DNA from: a phage
Sequence record: PZ445525.1
Length of the DNA stretch: 44,362 nt
Direction: 5' to 3' (one strand)
Of the stretch, positions 21,247 through 35,310 are shown piece after piece. The notes beneath the pieces are model-generated. The model made no database searches, was not told the origin of the DNA, and worked only from the letters and a program-made list of their open reading frames with translations. Every line of letters begins with the position of its first letter. The first letter of the stretch is position 1. Made by a program: the position numbers and the translations under genes.

Positions 21247-21326
21247 GGTATCATCTCCTATATTTGGTTGAGTTTTAGTATTACACCGCTCGATCAAGAA
21301 TGCAACCAATTTATGAGGATTTAGCT

Positions 21327-22955
21327 ATGGCAGCGGGTACGCTCTCCGTAACGAACAATAGCAAGGCGGTAGTAGGGGTTGGCACAACGTTTACCGCGTT
21401 CAAGGCTGGCGACTTCTTATCACTGGTGGTAGGACAAGTCCCCTACACCGTGGCAATCGCGTCCATTGAAAGCGACACTGCGCTTACCCTGGTGCTGCCG
21501 TTCGACGGCCCAACGGCAACCGGCCTGGCATGGGATGGCGTAGCGCGCGATACCATGTCGCTGGCAACTATGGGCGTAACGGTCCAGGCACAGAAAGCAT
21601 TACGCTTGATGATCGCGGACGAAAACAACTGGCGTGCAATCTTCGGCGACGCTGAAGAAATCACCGTAACGTTACCTAACGGGCAGGTTATGCAGGGGAT
21701 GTCATGGGGCTATCTGTCGCAGTTGATGAAACAGATCGACCCCGTTGAAATGCGCGACCTGCAACAACAAGCCGCCGCATCGGAAGCCGCCGCGCAAGGA
21801 TTTCGTAATGAGGCCGAAGGCTTCAAGACCGAGACGGCAGGCATTCGCGACGCCACCAATCAGATTAAGGCGGATACGCAGGCGATCCACGACGCCACTA
21901 ATACTGTCAAGACGCAGACTGACCAGATTAAGACTGATACGCAGGCCATCAAGGACCAGACGAACCAGATCAAGACTGACACCGGCGTTATAAGGGATGA
22001 AGCCAATACCGCGAAGACGGACGCGCAAGCCGCCCGTGATGCCGCGCAGGGATACCGGAACGAAGCCGAACAATTCAAGAATGAGATCGACCCGTCGAAA
22101 TTGCTGGCAAAGGCCAACAACCTGAGCGACGTTGCCGACCCAACGGCAGCGCGGGGCCACTTAGGCTTGGGGTCCGTGGCGACGCTAAATGTTGGTACGT
22201 CTGGTGATAATGTGCCAAAACTAAACGGCGCTAACACATGGTCACAGGCTCAAACCTTCAGCACGCCTTTAGCGATCGAGTCTGGGGGCACGGGCGTAAA
22301 CACGCGTGAGGCACTGTGGCCTGTCGTACGACCTCTCGACGTGTTAGGTAACGCAGGAAGACATTTTGGGATACCTGACGGTGTCACCAGAAACCACATC
22401 TGGCTGTGGAACCAGGCGGATACCCCGGACGCAGGTTTTGCTAACTTTATTGAAGGTGGCTGGTTTGACAGCGCATGGCGCATGGGAGGTATTCGTAGTG
22501 GAAATGTCCAATTATCACATGTGCAGCTTACCGTTGATAGCGACCCGGGTCCGGCTGCTGACTTCAAATTTTTCCCTGACGGTACTGCGGTAACTACAAA
22601 CTGGAGTTCAACATCCGACCCGCGCGTCAAATCTCTGATTGAGGTTATACCAGACCCACTTTATTTGATGCGAGGTATCCGTGGTTATTCTTGGTACTAT
22701 GAACATACTGGTAGTAAGGGCTTTGGGTTCCTGTCTTCCGAGGTGAAGGTTAACTTCAGCGGGGCGGTTAAGACATTTGGGGATGCTACGCTACCCGATG
22801 GTACAGTAGTACATGATGTGGAGGGTGTGGACACATCGGGAGTGTCCGCCGCACTCCATCACGAGGCCATACTGGCACTGATGGATAAAATGGAGGATAT
22901 GCAGAAAGAACTGGAGGAACTGAAAGCCGCAGTAGCGGCCCAGGCTAAAGCATAA
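21327..22955 (+). CDS. tail fiber protein with C-terminal intramolecular chaperone (peptidase S74-like) domain
   Basis: 542-aa ORF with RBS gaggat; 11-residue repeats (QIKTDTQAIKD...) encoded by ~33-bp tandem repeats; C-terminal region with S-D-P-R-V-K motif and coiled-coil tail typical of auto-cleaving chaperone domains. Confidence 0.65.
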   Translation: MAAGTLSVTNNSKAVVGVGTTFTAFKAGDFLSLVVGQVPYTVAIASIESDTALTLVLPFDGPTATGLAWDGVARDTMSLATMGVTVQAQKALRLMIADENNWRAIFGDAEEITVTLPNGQVMQGMSWGYLSQLMKQIDPVEMRDLQQQAAASEAAAQGFRNEAEGFKTETAGIRDATNQIKADTQAIHDATNTVKTQTDQIKTDTQAIKDQTNQIKTDTGVIRDEANTAKTDAQAARDAAQGYRNEAEQFKNEIDPSKLLAKANNLSDVADPTAARGHLGLGSVATLNVGTSGDNVPKLNGANTWSQAQTFSTPLAIESGGTGVNTREALWPVVRPLDVLGNAGRHFGIPDGVTRNHIWLWNQADTPDAGFANFIEGGWFDSAWRMGGIRSGNVQLSHVQLTVDSDPGPAADFKFFPDGTAVTTNWSSTSDPRVKSLIEVIPDPLYLMRGIRGYSWYYEHTGSKGFGFLSSEVKVNFSGAVKTFGDATLPDGTVVHDVEGVDTSGVSAALHHEAILALMDKMEDMQKELEELKAAVAAQAKA

Positions 22956-22961
22956 CGAGAA

Positions 22962-22983
22962 GGGGCCGTATGGCCCCTTTTTT
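22962..22983. terminator. bidirectional intrinsic terminator
   Basis: hairpin ggggccgtatggcccc followed by TTTTTT, between convergent stops at 22955 (+) and 22982 (-). Confidence 0.65.
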
Positions 22984-23557
22984 AGTTTGAGTTTTCCCAA
23001 TCCATTTTGCGCCGCACCAGCGGGCTTTCGTAGTATTCCTTTCCTTCCACTTCCACTAAGGGCCAGTCATTAACAATCACGTATGGCTCTGCGATATCCT
23101 CAATCACGCCGTGCGCGCTTTGCGGCCCTAACGACACACCCACCAGGATAACACCGGCAACGCGACGTGACAGATACTCGCGAGCGCAACGCGCCTCTAC
23201 CAGCCCGCGACGGATGCCGCTGGTGGCCTTAACCTCGTAGGTCCATACGGCATCGATTACATGCTCGCGGAAGTCTGGACCGGACTTAACCTTGCGCTTG
23301 CCGACCATGATGATATCGCCGCGGTCAATGGTATTGGCGCTAAACAGGCCGGTACGCATAAGCAAGCCTTGCGGGATGCAACTACGCCCGCCCGCCTGCC
23401 CTTCAAGATACATGCCCGCAAACATTTCGCCCAGCACACCGACCAGTCGGCTTTGCTTGCACGCGTCGGACTTTAAGCGCCACTGGTCAAACTCGATGCT
23501 TGCTATCATTGCCGCCAGGTGGAATTGTTTACCAGATATTTCATATTCGCCGTACAT
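22982..23557 (-). CDS. hypothetical protein (possible PD-(D/E)xK-type motif)
   Basis: 191-aa ORF; segment D-A-V-W-T-Y-E-V-K resembles a D...ExK nuclease motif; weak. Confidence 0.45.
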   Translation of the reverse strand: MYGEYEISGKQFHLAAMIASIEFDQWRLKSDACKQSRLVGVLGEMFAGMYLEGQAGGRSCIPQGLLMRTGLFSANTIDRGDIIMVGKRKVKSGPDFREHVIDAVWTYEVKATSGIRRGLVEARCAREYLSRRVAGVILVGVSLGPQSAHGVIEDIAEPYVIVNDWPLVEVEGKEYYESPLVRRKMDWENSN

Positions 23558-23599
23558 CGTGTGGTCCCCATTGATGCGGGCCGAAGCCCGCTATTCGAA

Positions 23600-24121
23600 T
23601 TATTTAAGTGCGCCAGTCACCAGTGTTTTTTCCATGTTACGGAAGTCTTCCGGCGTCATAAGTATTTTGGACCCATCTTCGCCGGTGAGCACGACCATAG
23701 GCTGGACGTCCCGGTCTACGACGCCGAAATTAGCGGCTTTAACCGTCTTGCCTGCCGATGGTGAAGGACGCCACGTCCCCGCGGTGGCGATGGGCCGTCC
23801 TTTAAGGCTGTCGTATTGCGCTGCCGTTGTATCGACCTGAATCTCGTCGTGTACGGTCATGTACGACTCGCCCAGCAAGGCCGCATACGCTACCAGGTCG
23901 ACGATATTGTCTTCCCGGTGCTTGCGGTGCTGGCGTACCAGCTTCAGGCAAATCAAGAAGGTCCAGGCTTCTTGCTCGGTTAGGTCGCGACCGGTAAGCG
24001 CGTTAAACACGGCAGCGATTTGTTTAGCGATGCGTTCTTCTTTCGCGTTGCCATAGCCGTTTTCTTTCCCGCGCTGTTCCATAGTGGTGGCGGCGTTTTT
24101 GCAGTATTCGTATGCTTTCAT
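23600..24121 (-). CDS. hypothetical protein with MazG-like/all-alpha NTP pyrophosphatase-like N-terminal region
   Basis: 173-aa ORF; N-terminal helical region with EER...LTEQEAW...ED..D pattern (recollection of MazG/DUF-type fold, unsearched). Confidence 0.45.
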   Translation of the reverse strand: MKAYEYCKNAATTMEQRGKENGYGNAKEERIAKQIAAVFNALTGRDLTEQEAWTFLICLKLVRQHRKHREDNIVDLVAYAALLGESYMTVHDEIQVDTTAAQYDSLKGRPIATAGTWRPSPSAGKTVKAANFGVVDRDVQPMVVLTGEDGSKILMTPEDFRNMEKTLVTGALK

Positions 24122-24183
24122 TATGTGGTCCTTTTTAGCGTGGGGCCTTATTGCCCCGACGCGTTAACTATAGTGCAACCAAC

Positions 24184-24654
24184 CTATTGGTTGCAAGTAA
24201 ATTTTGCAACATTTATTGCGTAAATTTTCGGGACCAAATCGCTACACGCCCGGCGAATTGCCGCGATGTTCTTCGGACAGTCTTCAATGATGACCAGTTC
24301 CGACACGTCCGCATAGCAGACCATTTTGAACACCGCGCACGCTTTAAACTCTGGCGGCGGGGTGTCGTCCAGCATGTGGCGCATAAACAACCGCCCTACG
24401 GGGAATACTTCCAATTGCTCGGCGGTGGTTTCCCAGCATTCACGCTGCCGGTTTGTCAAATACGCTATCTCGAAGCCTTGCTCTTTGTACATGCGCAACA
24501 GCGGCAGCATATCCATGTTCAGGTCTTCGCGTACGTGCGCTTTGTGCCACTTCGCCCAAAAAGTGGATTTGGTTTTTATACCCGGCACCAGGTCGGCGCG
24601 TGCATCACTCGAACCATTAATAACGCCATCCAGATCACAAATCAGTAGTTTCAT
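24184..24654 (-). CDS. HAD-superfamily phosphatase
   Basis: N-terminal motif I L-I-C-D-L-D-G-V (DxDG[TV]); 156 aa. Confidence 0.55.
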   Translation of the reverse strand: MKLLICDLDGVINGSSDARADLVPGIKTKSTFWAKWHKAHVREDLNMDMLPLLRMYKEQGFEIAYLTNRQRECWETTAEQLEVFPVGRLFMRHMLDDTPPPEFKACAVFKMVCYADVSELVIIEDCPKNIAAIRRACSDLVPKIYAINVAKFTCNQ

Positions 24655-24884
24655 TTTAATTCCTCAACCAAATCCGAACGAACAACTCTGGCGGAAAACT
24701 TGTTACACACAAGATGCCAATTTGCGGTTATGACAAGCCAGCCGGTAAGGTCCAGACCCAGGATATATTCTGGACGTGGCACTCGCTTCACACGACCGCG
24801 GCGTTGGTCGATGTTATAGTCTCTTTGCATTTGGTCTACTACCGCGGGGTCGCGGTCAACGATTAAGATATTCATGTAACTCAC
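24651..24884 (-). CDS. hypothetical protein
   Basis: 77-aa ORF translationally coupled within the minus-strand operon. Confidence 0.4.
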   Translation of the reverse strand: MSYMNILIVDRDPAVVDQMQRDYNIDQRRGRVKRVPRPEYILGLDLTGWLVITANWHLVCNKFSARVVRSDLVEELK

Positions 24885-25341
24885 TCTCGCTCATTATTTC
24901 AATTTGTGCGCTGCCGATGGGTGGCGCTTCGTCAAAGATTATCAATTGCTGGCACTTGTTATTGCTCGGACCGACTTCGCCGGTTACGGCGTGAATGAAT
25001 CTAATCCGCCAGTCCAGAAGAATTATCAGGTTTGCAGTCTTCCGGGCCAACTTCGCCCACTTCGTCGACGTGTCCTGATTCAGTAGCATGACAGTCCGGC
25101 GTCCGTGCGCTGCGCACTCGACCCACGGCAGCGGATCGGAATACGGCGGATTGCACCATTTCCACCCTTTCAACTCTGCCCAGTCCACATCAAGCGCGCT
25201 ATGTTCTGCCGTGAAGTAACGCGGTAGCAGATGATTGGCGTCGCTCGCTGCCATATCGTAACGGAATCGGAACTTACGGCGCAGCGGTTTAAATAAAGCT
25301 GGCGGCGTGCGCCAGCTATCTTTTTGCTCACTCTCCGTCAT
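24856..25341 (-). CDS. DNA N6-adenine (amino) methyltransferase
   Basis: catalytic motif IV W-C-N-P-P-Y; 161 aa, phage Dam-like size. Confidence 0.65.
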   Translation of the reverse strand: MTESEQKDSWRTPPALFKPLRRKFRFRYDMAASDANHLLPRYFTAEHSALDVDWAELKGWKWCNPPYSDPLPWVECAAHGRRTVMLLNQDTSTKWAKLARKTANLIILLDWRIRFIHAVTGEVGPSNNKCQQLIIFDEAPPIGSAQIEIMSESELHEYLNR

Positions 25342-25786
25342 AGTCGGGATCTATCGCATACAGGGCGGTTTTCTTGCCGCGGGATAGCACGCGTTGGACT
25401 CGGGATAGCTCCGCCCTACTGAGCGGTCGGCTCTCGGAATAGTAGCCGCCGTTTGCACGCCACGCTATACGCACCAGTCCTTCCCGCGGGATCGAAGACG
25501 GGCTACCCTTCGGTCGCACGTACGCCTCGGCCCGTTTGCAATGCTCGCGCAGACCTTCGGCAGTGATGCGGTTTAGTGCGACGGTGGTTGTGTACCCGGT
25601 GCGCTGCATGATACCCATCAATTCGAAAAGCAGTTCGAAGCGCTCCTCTAGCTCCTGGCGCACTTTCTTCTCGCCTTCATATAGCGCCTGGTTGGTGTCC
25701 GCCAACGCGTTAGCACGTTCGGCCTGTTCGCGGGCTTCGAAGCATTGCGCGGCCCAGTATGCTTTTTCTTCTTGTAAAATTTTCAT
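25328..25786 (-). CDS. hypothetical protein
   Basis: 152-aa ORF with coiled-coil N-terminus; promoter-like TTGCAT/TATATT with ATTGGTTGCA motifs upstream (25841-25880). Confidence 0.45.
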   Translation of the reverse strand: MKILQEEKAYWAAQCFEAREQAERANALADTNQALYEGEKKVRQELEERFELLFELMGIMQRTGYTTTVALNRITAEGLREHCKRAEAYVRPKGSPSSIPREGLVRIAWRANGGYYSESRPLSRAELSRVQRVLSRGKKTALYAIDPDYDGE

Positions 25787-25867
25787 CGTGTTGTCTCCAG
25801 GTATTAAAAAGGGCGTCCAAACCGGACACCCTCAATATAATGCAACCAATCTTATTATGCAACCAAT

Positions 25868-35280: not shown

Positions 35281-35310
35281 ATGATAGATTGGTTGCAGGA
35301 TGGGTGTCAA
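35281..35310 (-). promoter_or_regulatory. candidate leftward early promoter
   Basis: minus-strand TTGACA, 18-nt spacer containing TGCAACCAAT, TATCAT. Confidence 0.4.

Follow-up and report, generated by a model that had tools for sequence, protein, structure and literature searches.

The Dhillonviruses are HK578-like siphophages of E. coli with genomes of about 44–45 kb, and one of their small proteins, Ksap1, directly binds and activates the NLR-like defence Avs2 of Klebsiella pneumoniae, its loss having no obvious cost to the phage (Bechon et al. 2024, PMC11564622). A phosphatase gene treated below has already been called 'phosphatase' in the same work. The other described systems to which the genes of this study have to be compared are the phosphatase domains of T4 Pnkp (PseT) and of bacterial Pnkp1, the class B/C acid phosphatases, the PD-(D/E)xK nucleases such as I-Ssp6803I, archaeal Hjc and type II enzymes like MspI, and the MazG-type nucleoside triphosphate (NTP) pyrophosphohydrolases. 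The stretch analysed here, sequence record PZ445525.1 (44,362 nucleotides, called the window), is at 44.4 kb close to the whole genome of a Dhillonvirus, since Dhillonvirus records match the 2.2-kb region around the three genes that are our subject: 156 phage records match this region, 126 of them over at least 80% of it, and the best-listed Dhillonvirus records show 87.3–94.1% identity. The three genes are as follows.

22982-23557, minus strand: open reading frame (ORF) for a 191-residue putative nuclease, matching phrog_10558
23600-24121, minus strand: ORF for a 173-residue protein with a DUF6378 domain, matching phrog_9871
24184-24654, minus strand: ORF for a 156-residue HAD phosphatase, matching phrog_415

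We read them as three separate accessory genes of DNA or nucleotide metabolism, which close the leftward early block of the phage in two transcription units, and we give this reading about an even chance of being right. A first-pass annotation of the window had proposed three minus-strand genes of 191, 173 and 156 residues, and this was confirmed: the ORFs lie exactly as placed, each matches its PHROG family over the full length (phrog_10558, 4.5e-118; phrog_9871, 3.4e-106; phrog_415, 2.3e-37), and the ratio of non-synonymous to synonymous substitution rates (dN/dS), taken from close relatives with unsaturated dS (0.25–0.44), is 0.054 for the nuclease, 0.105 for the DUF6378 protein and 0.012 for the phosphatase, with 0.09 for the neighbouring Dam gene. 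All three ORFs are real genes under purifying selection. Within Dhillonvirus-like phages the gene order HAD, DUF6378, nuclease is nearly universal, and the synteny is preserved in relatives at 55–58% identity. Since transcription of the minus strand goes from high to low coordinates, the phosphatase, DUF6378 and nuclease genes are the last three of the leftward block; they lie at its 3' end and not, as had been annotated, at the start of a leftward operon, and the strongest upstream promoter-like site in a consensus scan is found at 35310..35281.

The 156-residue protein had been taken for an HAD phosphatase on its DLDGV motif, and at the level of sequence this assignment is solid. All four motifs are in place, namely D7-x-D9-G-V (DLDGV) as motif I, T67 (YLTNR, with R69) as motif II, K104 as motif III and E124-D125 as motif IV; among 13 homologues, down to 42% identity, D7, D9, K104 and D125 are invariant, and substitution at positions 67 and 124 is limited to T/S and E/D, respectively. 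The match to phrog_415 spans residues 1–154, and this family, annotated as polynucleotide kinase, is really a stand-alone phosphatase. In Pfam the best match is Acid_phosphat_B (23.8 bits, E 3.6e-5), which lies below the cutoff of 27 that some homologues exceed (for example the L024 homologue with 27.4 bits), and further weak matches are to LNS2 and HAD_PNKP (13.2 bits, E 0.098, cutoff 27.6); the secondary Pfam matches of T4 Pnkp are to these same families. Moreover, the profile search of the PDB gave the phosphatase domain of Pnkp1 (E 0.0019) and an acid phosphatase (2i33, E 0.0054), hhalign aligned the protein with T4 Pnkp over 36 columns round motif II (probability 32%, E 4.8e-4), and the homologue in L081, a distinct siphophage, scores above threshold for HAD_SAK_2, an HAD family of RNA repair. 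With the T4 PseT phosphatase domain and bacterial Pnkp1 the protein thus shares the HAD fold, the DxDG(T/V), (S/T)xR, K and (D/E)D motifs, a local profile likeness round motif II and the secondary Pfam neighbours, but it stands alone with 156 residues and without a kinase domain, its HAD_PNKP score is sub-threshold and no partner ligase was found. With the class B/C acid phosphatases and nucleotidases (Acid_phosphat_B; e(P4) 5'-nucleotidase) it shares a profile match that spans motifs I–III, whereas it is much smaller (156 vs 230–270 residues), scores below the cutoff and has no signal peptide evident by eye, so that it is probably cytoplasmic. The T5 deoxynucleoside-5'-monophosphatase Dmp, likewise a phage-encoded phosphatase with a DLDG motif I, was considered as a relative and rejected, since nothing is alike beyond motif I and the hhalign probability is 2%. 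The nearest characterised relatives are the T4-PNKP, LNS2 and class-B acid-phosphatase groups, all of them distant, and the protein is a new, divergent member of a well-known superfamily. It is 100% identical to that of phage PaulFeyerabend. As a separate observation, the phosphatase allele in L006 (phage slur05 type) has 79% protein identity with a dS of 1.6, and the flanking nuclease, DUF6378 and Dam genes there have 91–96% identity with a dS of about 0.4; this mosaic suggests that the phosphatase gene alone was replaced by recombination.

The 191-residue protein has no sequence match in Pfam, NCBIfam or the PDB, with single-sequence and profile searches of the PDB sequences included, and only 15 relatives came out of an exhaustive profile search through 1.84 billion representatives. 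Its possible D...ExK nuclease-like motif, noticed in the first pass, agrees with the fold and with the invariant residues. The AF2 model, made with seven homologues as input (pLDDT 82.3, pTM 0.80), has a predicted alpha-beta-beta-beta-alpha-beta core, that is, a restriction-endonuclease-like alpha/beta fold, and E44, D81, E108 and K110 are invariant across 17 aligned sequences with identities as low as 24%. On the model E44 is placed in the helix 31–54, D81 at the start of the strand 82–85, and E108 and K110, which form the ExK as E108-V-K110, on the strand 104–112, with a spacing of 27 residues from D81 to E108. Residues 88–100 make up a basic loop of low model confidence, and the C-terminal subdomain, with invariant I161 and W165, is specific to the family. 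A Foldseek search against viral models (BFVD) returned many similarly shaped small, uncharacterised phage proteins, a few of them named restriction endonuclease; in GenBank one record also calls an orthologue 'restriction endonuclease'. The predicted structure and the alignment together support a PD-(D/E)xK-fold nuclease with the classical E...D...ExK set. The core fold and the placement of E, D and ExK are shared with I-Ssp6803I, archaeal Hjc and type II enzymes such as MspI; unlike these, the protein lacks a sequence match in the three databases, has the 27-residue spacing and the basic loop, and its family bears its own C-terminal subdomain. It is, like the phosphatase, a new and divergent member of a well-known enzyme superfamily. 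The protein is 100% identical to its counterpart in phage welsh, and the gene keeps to one position across about 158 Dhillonvirus-like records and 16 of the 16 IMG/VR contigs found.

For the 173-residue protein the first-pass annotation had proposed an N-terminus like that of MazG-like all-alpha NTP pyrophosphatases. What is found instead is DUF6378 (PF19905), matched by residues 17–85 with 39.1 bits against a gathering cutoff of 27.1 and by 24 of 24 aligned homologues. The protein consists of an N-terminal DUF6378 domain (about residues 1–90), a variable linker and a C-terminal strand-strand-helix module that occurs in Dhillonviruses only; helices are predicted at 3–20, 30–43, 49–64 and 70–89 (model pLDDT 50.5), and the invariant residues of the domain are Y23, E29, G44, L59, K60, R63, D71 and D75. 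The Foldseek search of this poor AF2 model against the PDB gave no match at E<1, only noise, and neither single-sequence nor profile searches of the PDB sequences returned anything related. In about 35 DUF6378 members no match to the MazG, PRA-PH, dimeric dUTPase or Nmad families of Pfam was present at E up to 10. The hhalign comparison of DUF6378 with a MazG profile of 80 enterobacterial orthologues gave a probability of 0.8% against 0.1–0.5% for unrelated controls, both profiles being of low diversity and so blind to very remote kinship, and aligned a single stretch of 20 N-terminal columns with 35% identity, which is probably what had been seen as MazG-like. In addition, the acidic metal-binding signature EExxE...ExxD was not found among the conserved residues of DUF6378. 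One Vibrio N4-like phage carries both DUF6378 and, two genes apart, a separately annotated 'MazG-like' gene, whose protein has no Pfam support and was not used as a comparator; phiVC8 p25, tried as a MazZ comparator, turned out to be an HD-domain protein. Thus DUF6378 resembles the MazG-type enzymes in being small and all-helical and in some of its phage neighbourhoods, but differs in lacking detectable homology and the acidic signature and in coexisting with a gene of that name in one phage, and kinship of the 173-residue protein with MazG has, as far as its sequence can tell, no support. The families PHROG 9871, 474 and 1167, labelled 'phosphofructokinase', correspond to DUF6378, and the SECphi18 RefSeq label points to Nmad1/DUF1599, for which DUF6378 has no such Pfam match; neither the 'phosphofructokinase' nor the 'nucleotide modification associated' label was supported by the tests on the protein. 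The domain is widespread, occurring in phages of enterobacteria, Vibrio, Xanthomonas and Stenotrophomonas, and in comparison with Pfam DUF6378 and these PHROG families the Dhillonvirus version adds the linker and the lineage-specific C-terminal module. We also observed that the linker (residues about 95–140) is hypervariable in length and sequence among orthologues that are otherwise 80–90% identical and comprise 130–199 residues, and that some linkers look as if they contained repeated segments.

The arrangement of the three genes in two units follows from the signals around them, which are listed here together with a second promoter farther upstream.

22957..22985, both strands: predicted terminator hairpin GAGAAGGGGCC-GTAT-GGCCCCTTTTTT with a T-run, from RNA folding
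24138..24162, minus strand: 5' leader hairpin GCGUC-GGGGC-AAUAAG-GCCCC-ACGC, ahead of the ribosome-binding site AAGGA and the start codon ATG at 24121
24167..24196, minus strand: sigma-70-like promoter, with -35 TTGCAA at 24196-24191, an 18-nt spacer and -10 TATAGT at 24172-24167
24174-24195: inverted repeat TGCAACCAA-cct-ATTGGTTGCA, overlapping the last codons of the phosphatase gene and its TAG stop (24184-24186)
25862..25834, minus strand: second internal promoter, TTGCAT, 17 nt, TATATT, ahead of the gene for a 152-residue protein

The first-pass annotation had located the inverted repeat between the second and the third gene; the repeat is indeed there at 24174-24195, but it overlaps the end of the phosphatase gene and is one of many copies of its motif. 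In the window ATTGGTTGCA has 18 sites, 10 exact and 8 with one mismatch, compared with 3.4 expected, and none of 100 shuffles reached this number. The copies are mostly paired and lie just upstream of start codons (e.g. 5239/5252 (-), 25841/25858 (-), 38513/38544 (+), 35288 (+) and 42147/42170 (-)), where the pairs supply sigma-70-like promoters, whose -10 is TATAnT, with the -35 (TTGCAa) and with the spacer or the start region. At the phosphatase end one copy is the -35 of the promoter 24196..24167 and the other occupies its spacer. The inverted repeat is therefore best read as a putative internal sigma-70-like promoter, and ATTGGTTGCA may also be an operator for some regulator. The same layout (TTGCAa, 17–18 nt including a motif copy, TATAnT and a hairpin) follows the phosphatase stop in every phosphatase-bearing Dhillonvirus-like contig examined, and it is kept at about 55% protein identity, where the motif copies are direct instead of inverted. 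The leader hairpin keeps its pairing with stems that differ by lineage (GGGGC/GCCCC, GGGGGC/GCCCCC, GGGAGGC/GCCTCCC and GGGGCGG/CCGCCCC), and the RNA of 24119-24200 folds with -28.7 kcal/mol (z -4.2); since no U-tract follows it downstream, the hairpin at 24138-24162 is not a terminator on the minus strand. Furthermore, the second promoter is also followed by a GC hairpin, GGGTGTCC-GGTTT-GGACGCCC (to about 25800), and because of this pair of elements ahead of the 152-residue gene the leftward 'operon' is one with several promoters, each with a 5' stem-loop.

At the other end, the convergent terminator proposed in the first pass was recovered: a GC hairpin with a T-run occupies 22957-22985, where the tail-fibre gene (stop at 22955) and the nuclease gene converge, and the T-run overlaps the stop codon of the latter. 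On the plus strand it folds with -19 kcal/mol and a U6 tail (z -3.8), and on the minus strand with -15.7 kcal/mol and a weaker U-rich tail (z -4.7), so a bidirectional terminator is plausible. The consensus scan missed it, probably because extension of the stem absorbed the T-run.

In the reading that we prefer, the first unit would end with Dam, Ksap1 and the HAD phosphatase, and their translation is probably coupled, because the reading frames overlap (the phosphatase start and the stop of the preceding gene share 4 nt, ATGA). The second unit would begin at the ATTGGTTGCA-built promoter, carry the conserved 5' stem-loop, encode the DUF6378 protein and the nuclease, and end at the bidirectional terminator; it is the conserved internal promoter that lets the phosphatase close one unit and the other two genes form another. 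By the standard HAD mechanism, Asp7 would act as the nucleophile and Asp9 as the acid/base, Thr67 and Lys104 would hold the phosphate and Glu124/Asp125 the Mg2+, and the enzyme would strip a phosphomonoester, most likely a phosphate at the 3' end of a nucleic acid or on a (deoxy)nucleoside monophosphate. The nuclease would be a Mg2+-dependent DNA endonuclease using E44, D81, E108 and K110 and leaving 5'-phosphate and 3'-OH ends, and DUF6378 would be a helical domain of about 90 residues that accompanies genes for DNA methyltransferase, thymidylate synthase, ribonucleotide reductase and polymerase across phages. The three enzymes may thus be independent and expressed alongside the replication genes. 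We infer the substrates, and likewise that the gene products work on DNA or nucleotides in replication or host-DNA breakdown and not on signalling nucleotides. Shown are the genes and their conservation, the two folds with the catalytic residues in them, the layout of the promoter and the contexts in which the genes occur. The 'nucleotide/DNA metabolism' flavour of the genes is reasonable because they sit in a replication and methylation block and DUF6378 is found elsewhere beside Dam, thymidylate synthase and ribonucleotide reductase.

Several points weigh against it. The activities and substrates of all three proteins are predictions, and the promoter 24196..24167 is a consensus match conserved in relatives, with a predicted start near 24160. 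The ends left by PD-(D/E)xK nucleases carry a 3'-OH, which makes the phosphatase no obvious partner for the products of the nuclease itself. The likeness of the phosphatase to characterised enzymes appears weak (23.8 vs 27 bits; hhalign 32% to T4 Pnkp), for which reason a polynucleotide and a mononucleotide substrate are indistinguishable, and DUF6378 would come under 'DNA/nucleotide metabolism' by its neighbourhood alone. In addition, the association of the three families is suggestive but could equally reflect the common ancestry of these siphophages.

The neighbourhoods themselves are of several kinds. In the window the leftward block has, upstream of our genes and in the order of transcription, a function-unassigned protein, an exonuclease, a Gp2.5-like single-stranded DNA-binding/annealing protein, a DNA polymerase, a VRR-NUC-type endonuclease that matches a Holliday-junction-resolvase PHROG, a small zinc-finger protein, an SNF2 helicase, a Dcm-like methyltransferase, an HNH endonuclease, the 152-residue protein, Dam and a 77-residue protein, then the phosphatase, DUF6378 and nuclease genes; the frames of Dam, the 77-residue protein (the Ksap1 homologue) and HAD overlap. 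Outside the Dhillonvirus-like phages, more than 30 fetched DUF6378 loci have neither the phosphatase nor the nuclease within 5 kb. In mEp021-like temperate phages DUF6378 overlaps the end of Dam and is followed by a membrane protein and a Dcm-like methyltransferase (positions 2439-4707 of L167, phage mEp021, and likewise some 25 related contigs of IMG/VR, L043-L071), and both methyltransferases have homologues in the Dhillonvirus (E about 1e-23 and about 1e-77), which suggests that the two groups share a methylation-associated cassette. Other loci have DUF6378 downstream of thymidylate synthase near NrdD, downstream of the large subunit of ribonucleotide reductase, or between DNA polymerase I and primase. 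The distant relatives of the nuclease (30–37% identity) are located at the end of an early operon carrying DNA methyltransferases: L081, with a nuclease 35% identical, has HAD, DUF6378 and nuclease in the same order and N6_N4_Mtase plus a Dcm-like gene in the operon; L024 has an HAD gene upstream and MT-A70 in the operon; and in L026 and a Klebsiella phage the DUF6378 gene is found across the lysis cassette from the nuclease relative. Two other lineages show none of these associations and have no methyltransferase nearby. Moreover, one Dhillonvirus variant (L013/L040, IMGVR_UViG_3300045988_003101) lacks both Ksap1 and the phosphatase, and there the Dam frame runs stop-free into the DUF6378 frame (L013:4856-5953), which could be a Dam-DUF6378 fusion or could involve internal initiation at the usual MKAFEY start.

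These contexts bear on the other explanations that can be offered. The interpretation of the first pass, that a MazG-like pyrophosphatase of 173 residues and the HAD phosphatase act together as a counter-defence, either by depleting or reshaping the nucleotide pools or by destroying signalling nucleotides, is very improbable and has the least support; because it rests on a MazG-like pyrophosphatase that is unsupported, it was not upheld. In its favour, the genes are neighbours, members of either family are found in other phages among nucleotide-metabolism genes, DUF6378 is an all-helical domain (four helices predicted), its invariant E29, K60, R63, D71 and D75 could bind metal and phosphate, and the 20 N-terminal columns with 35% identity do resemble MazG; but the roughly 35 members have no MazG-type Pfam match, the PDB profile searches are empty, the hhalign probability is at the level of the controls, the acidic motif was not found, the Vibrio phage has DUF6378 and the MazG-like gene as separate genes, and there is no PADLOC match. 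The pairing of the two enzymes is further weakened by the conserved promoter that divides their genes, by the more than 30 DUF6378 loci without the phosphatase and by the Dhillonvirus without it, and nothing was found in support of an action on signalling nucleotides. A quite different idea is that the genes are a phage-borne restriction-like set, in which the nuclease degrades host or competitor DNA without the Dam/Dcm-like methylation of the phage, and the phosphatase and DUF6378 process the released nucleotides. Restriction-modification systems of Chloroviruses degrade host DNA in a comparable way, and the nuclease is last or near-last in a methyltransferase-encoding operon in four independent lineages (Dhillonvirus; the Klebsiella phage and L026; L024; L081), apart from its name in the one GenBank record. 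We nevertheless consider this unlikely: methyltransferases are common in such phage modules and their co-occurrence may be trivial, the two lineages without one nearby do not fit, Dam and Dcm sites are methylated in E. coli K-12 anyway, which would shield host DNA from a Dam- or Dcm-sensitive enzyme, and host-DNA degradation by Dhillonviruses did not surface in the literature, in which no search was aimed at it. It is even harder to believe, at a level close to implausible, that the DUF6378-nuclease unit, the phosphatase and the Dam/Dcm-like methyltransferases form one restriction-like module, in which the nuclease cuts unprotected DNA and the phosphatase, perhaps with DUF6378, clears nucleotides that would include danger signals such as methylated dAMP. 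The PUA-Cal-HAD defence senses methylated dAMP during phage-induced chromosome degradation (bioRxiv 10.64898/2026.01.15.699771). If such a module were true, DUF6378 would be a new family of nucleotide-processing enzymes linked to DNA methylation.

The phosphatase and the nuclease have also been considered each for itself. Were the HAD protein a polynucleotide 3'-phosphatase of the kind formed by the C-terminal domain in T4 Pnkp (PseT), it would heal ends, clearing the 3'-phosphate or cyclic-phosphate ends left by defence nucleases on phage DNA or host tRNA for a polymerase or ligase. The polynucleotide kinase annotation of its PHROG family, the best PDB profile match to the phosphatase domain of the RNA-repair enzyme Pnkp1, the hhalign match over motif II and the HAD_SAK_2 ('Swiss Army Knife RNA repair') membership of the L081 homologue all point in this direction, and a minimal cap, inferred from the size of 156 residues, would be typical of HAD enzymes acting on macromolecules. 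End healing is still a doubtful proposal, as neither a 5'-kinase domain nor a credible ligase was seen in the leftward-block genes examined (the 152-residue 'DNA ligase' of phrog_10530 looks too short and its label unsupported), the likeness to PNKP is weak (HAD_PNKP E 0.098), the acid phosphatases of classes B/C, being nucleotidases, reach equally good scores, and a natural variant lives without the gene. For the nuclease, a structure-specific role, as a Hjc-like resolvase or a flap/branch enzyme for recombination-dependent replication and packaging unrelated to the other two genes, is suggested by the pattern GxxxE ... D(I/V)(I/V) ... E-V-K in the 17-member alignment, which we take to resemble that of Hjc, and by the exonuclease, annealing protein and helicase in the same gene block. 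We regard this role as rather improbable, because the VRR-NUC-type protein already provides a match to a resolvase family, the extra C-terminal subdomain and the long basic loop are not seen in Hjc, and a function at the core of replication should be found in more than 15 representatives among 1.84 billion. That the nuclease gene is a homing endonuclease gene can practically be dismissed, and we rejected it: such genes are typically sporadic, whereas this one is near-universal at a fixed position in the about 158 records and 16 of 16 contigs, is under strong purifying selection (dN/dS 0.05) and keeps its place in the lineages at 55% identity. The reading as three separate accessory genes in two transcription units is the one that we retain, and the restriction-like, end-healing and junction-resolving roles are kept as alternatives.

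In the same stretch a known trigger of immunity adjoins the phosphatase gene.

24651..24884, minus strand: 77-residue Ksap1 homologue (phrog_10685, 9.7e-43), between Dam and the phosphatase and syntenic with SECphi18 gp51

Ksap1 is the only published immune link at this locus, and it triggers defence and does not block it. PADLOC gave no match at E up to 1 for the three proteins and their two upstream neighbours, NCBIfam gave no useful match for the three proteins, and the other published SECphi18 defence triggers (portal/RAZR, SSB/Retron-Eco8 and polymerase/Borvo) involve none of the three genes. The three genes are ordinary accessory content of the phage with no evidence yet for a counter-defence role, which is speculation. 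We also noted that the Ksap1 homologue evolves faster than its neighbours, with a dN/dS of about 0.25 and 56–65% identity where the flanking genes have 91–99%.

The results improve the annotation of roughly 150 sequenced Dhillonviruses, phages that serve in phage therapy work and in the collections BASEL and SECphi: 'hypothetical protein' can be relabelled as 'PD-(D/E)xK nuclease', the names 'phosphofructokinase' and 'acid phosphatase', given to neighbouring genes, can be put right, and the Ksap1 locus gains a predicted transcription map. The small nuclease family and DUF6378, the latter widespread, with enzyme-like conservation and repeatedly beside Dam, thymidylate synthase and ribonucleotide reductase, are the most useful leads and well-defined biochemical targets. 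If the nuclease or DUF6378 acted on host DNA or on nucleotide danger signals, this would bear on how phages avoid nucleotide-sensing defences.

Some minor observations concern the surrounding genes. Both phrog_10530 and the SECphi18 RefSeq record give the 152-residue protein (25328-25786, minus strand) the name 'DNA ligase'; neither NCBIfam nor PADLOC has a match for it, the protein looks too short for a ligase, by eye it opens with a coiled-coil-like stretch, and the label looks wrong. The tail-fibre gene starts with ATGCAACCAAT (encoding MQPI, 21300-21310), itself a reverse copy of the ATTGGTTGCA motif, in a region where leftward and rightward transcription diverge. Finally, the lineages at about 55% identity have one or two extra small ORFs (44–101 residues) between the internal promoter and the DUF6378 gene (L020:4846-5287, L021:5160-5465 and L023:4960-5166), and one of them begins, as judged by eye, with a lipoprotein-like signal sequence, MKYGTAIAITIAAVLGCS.

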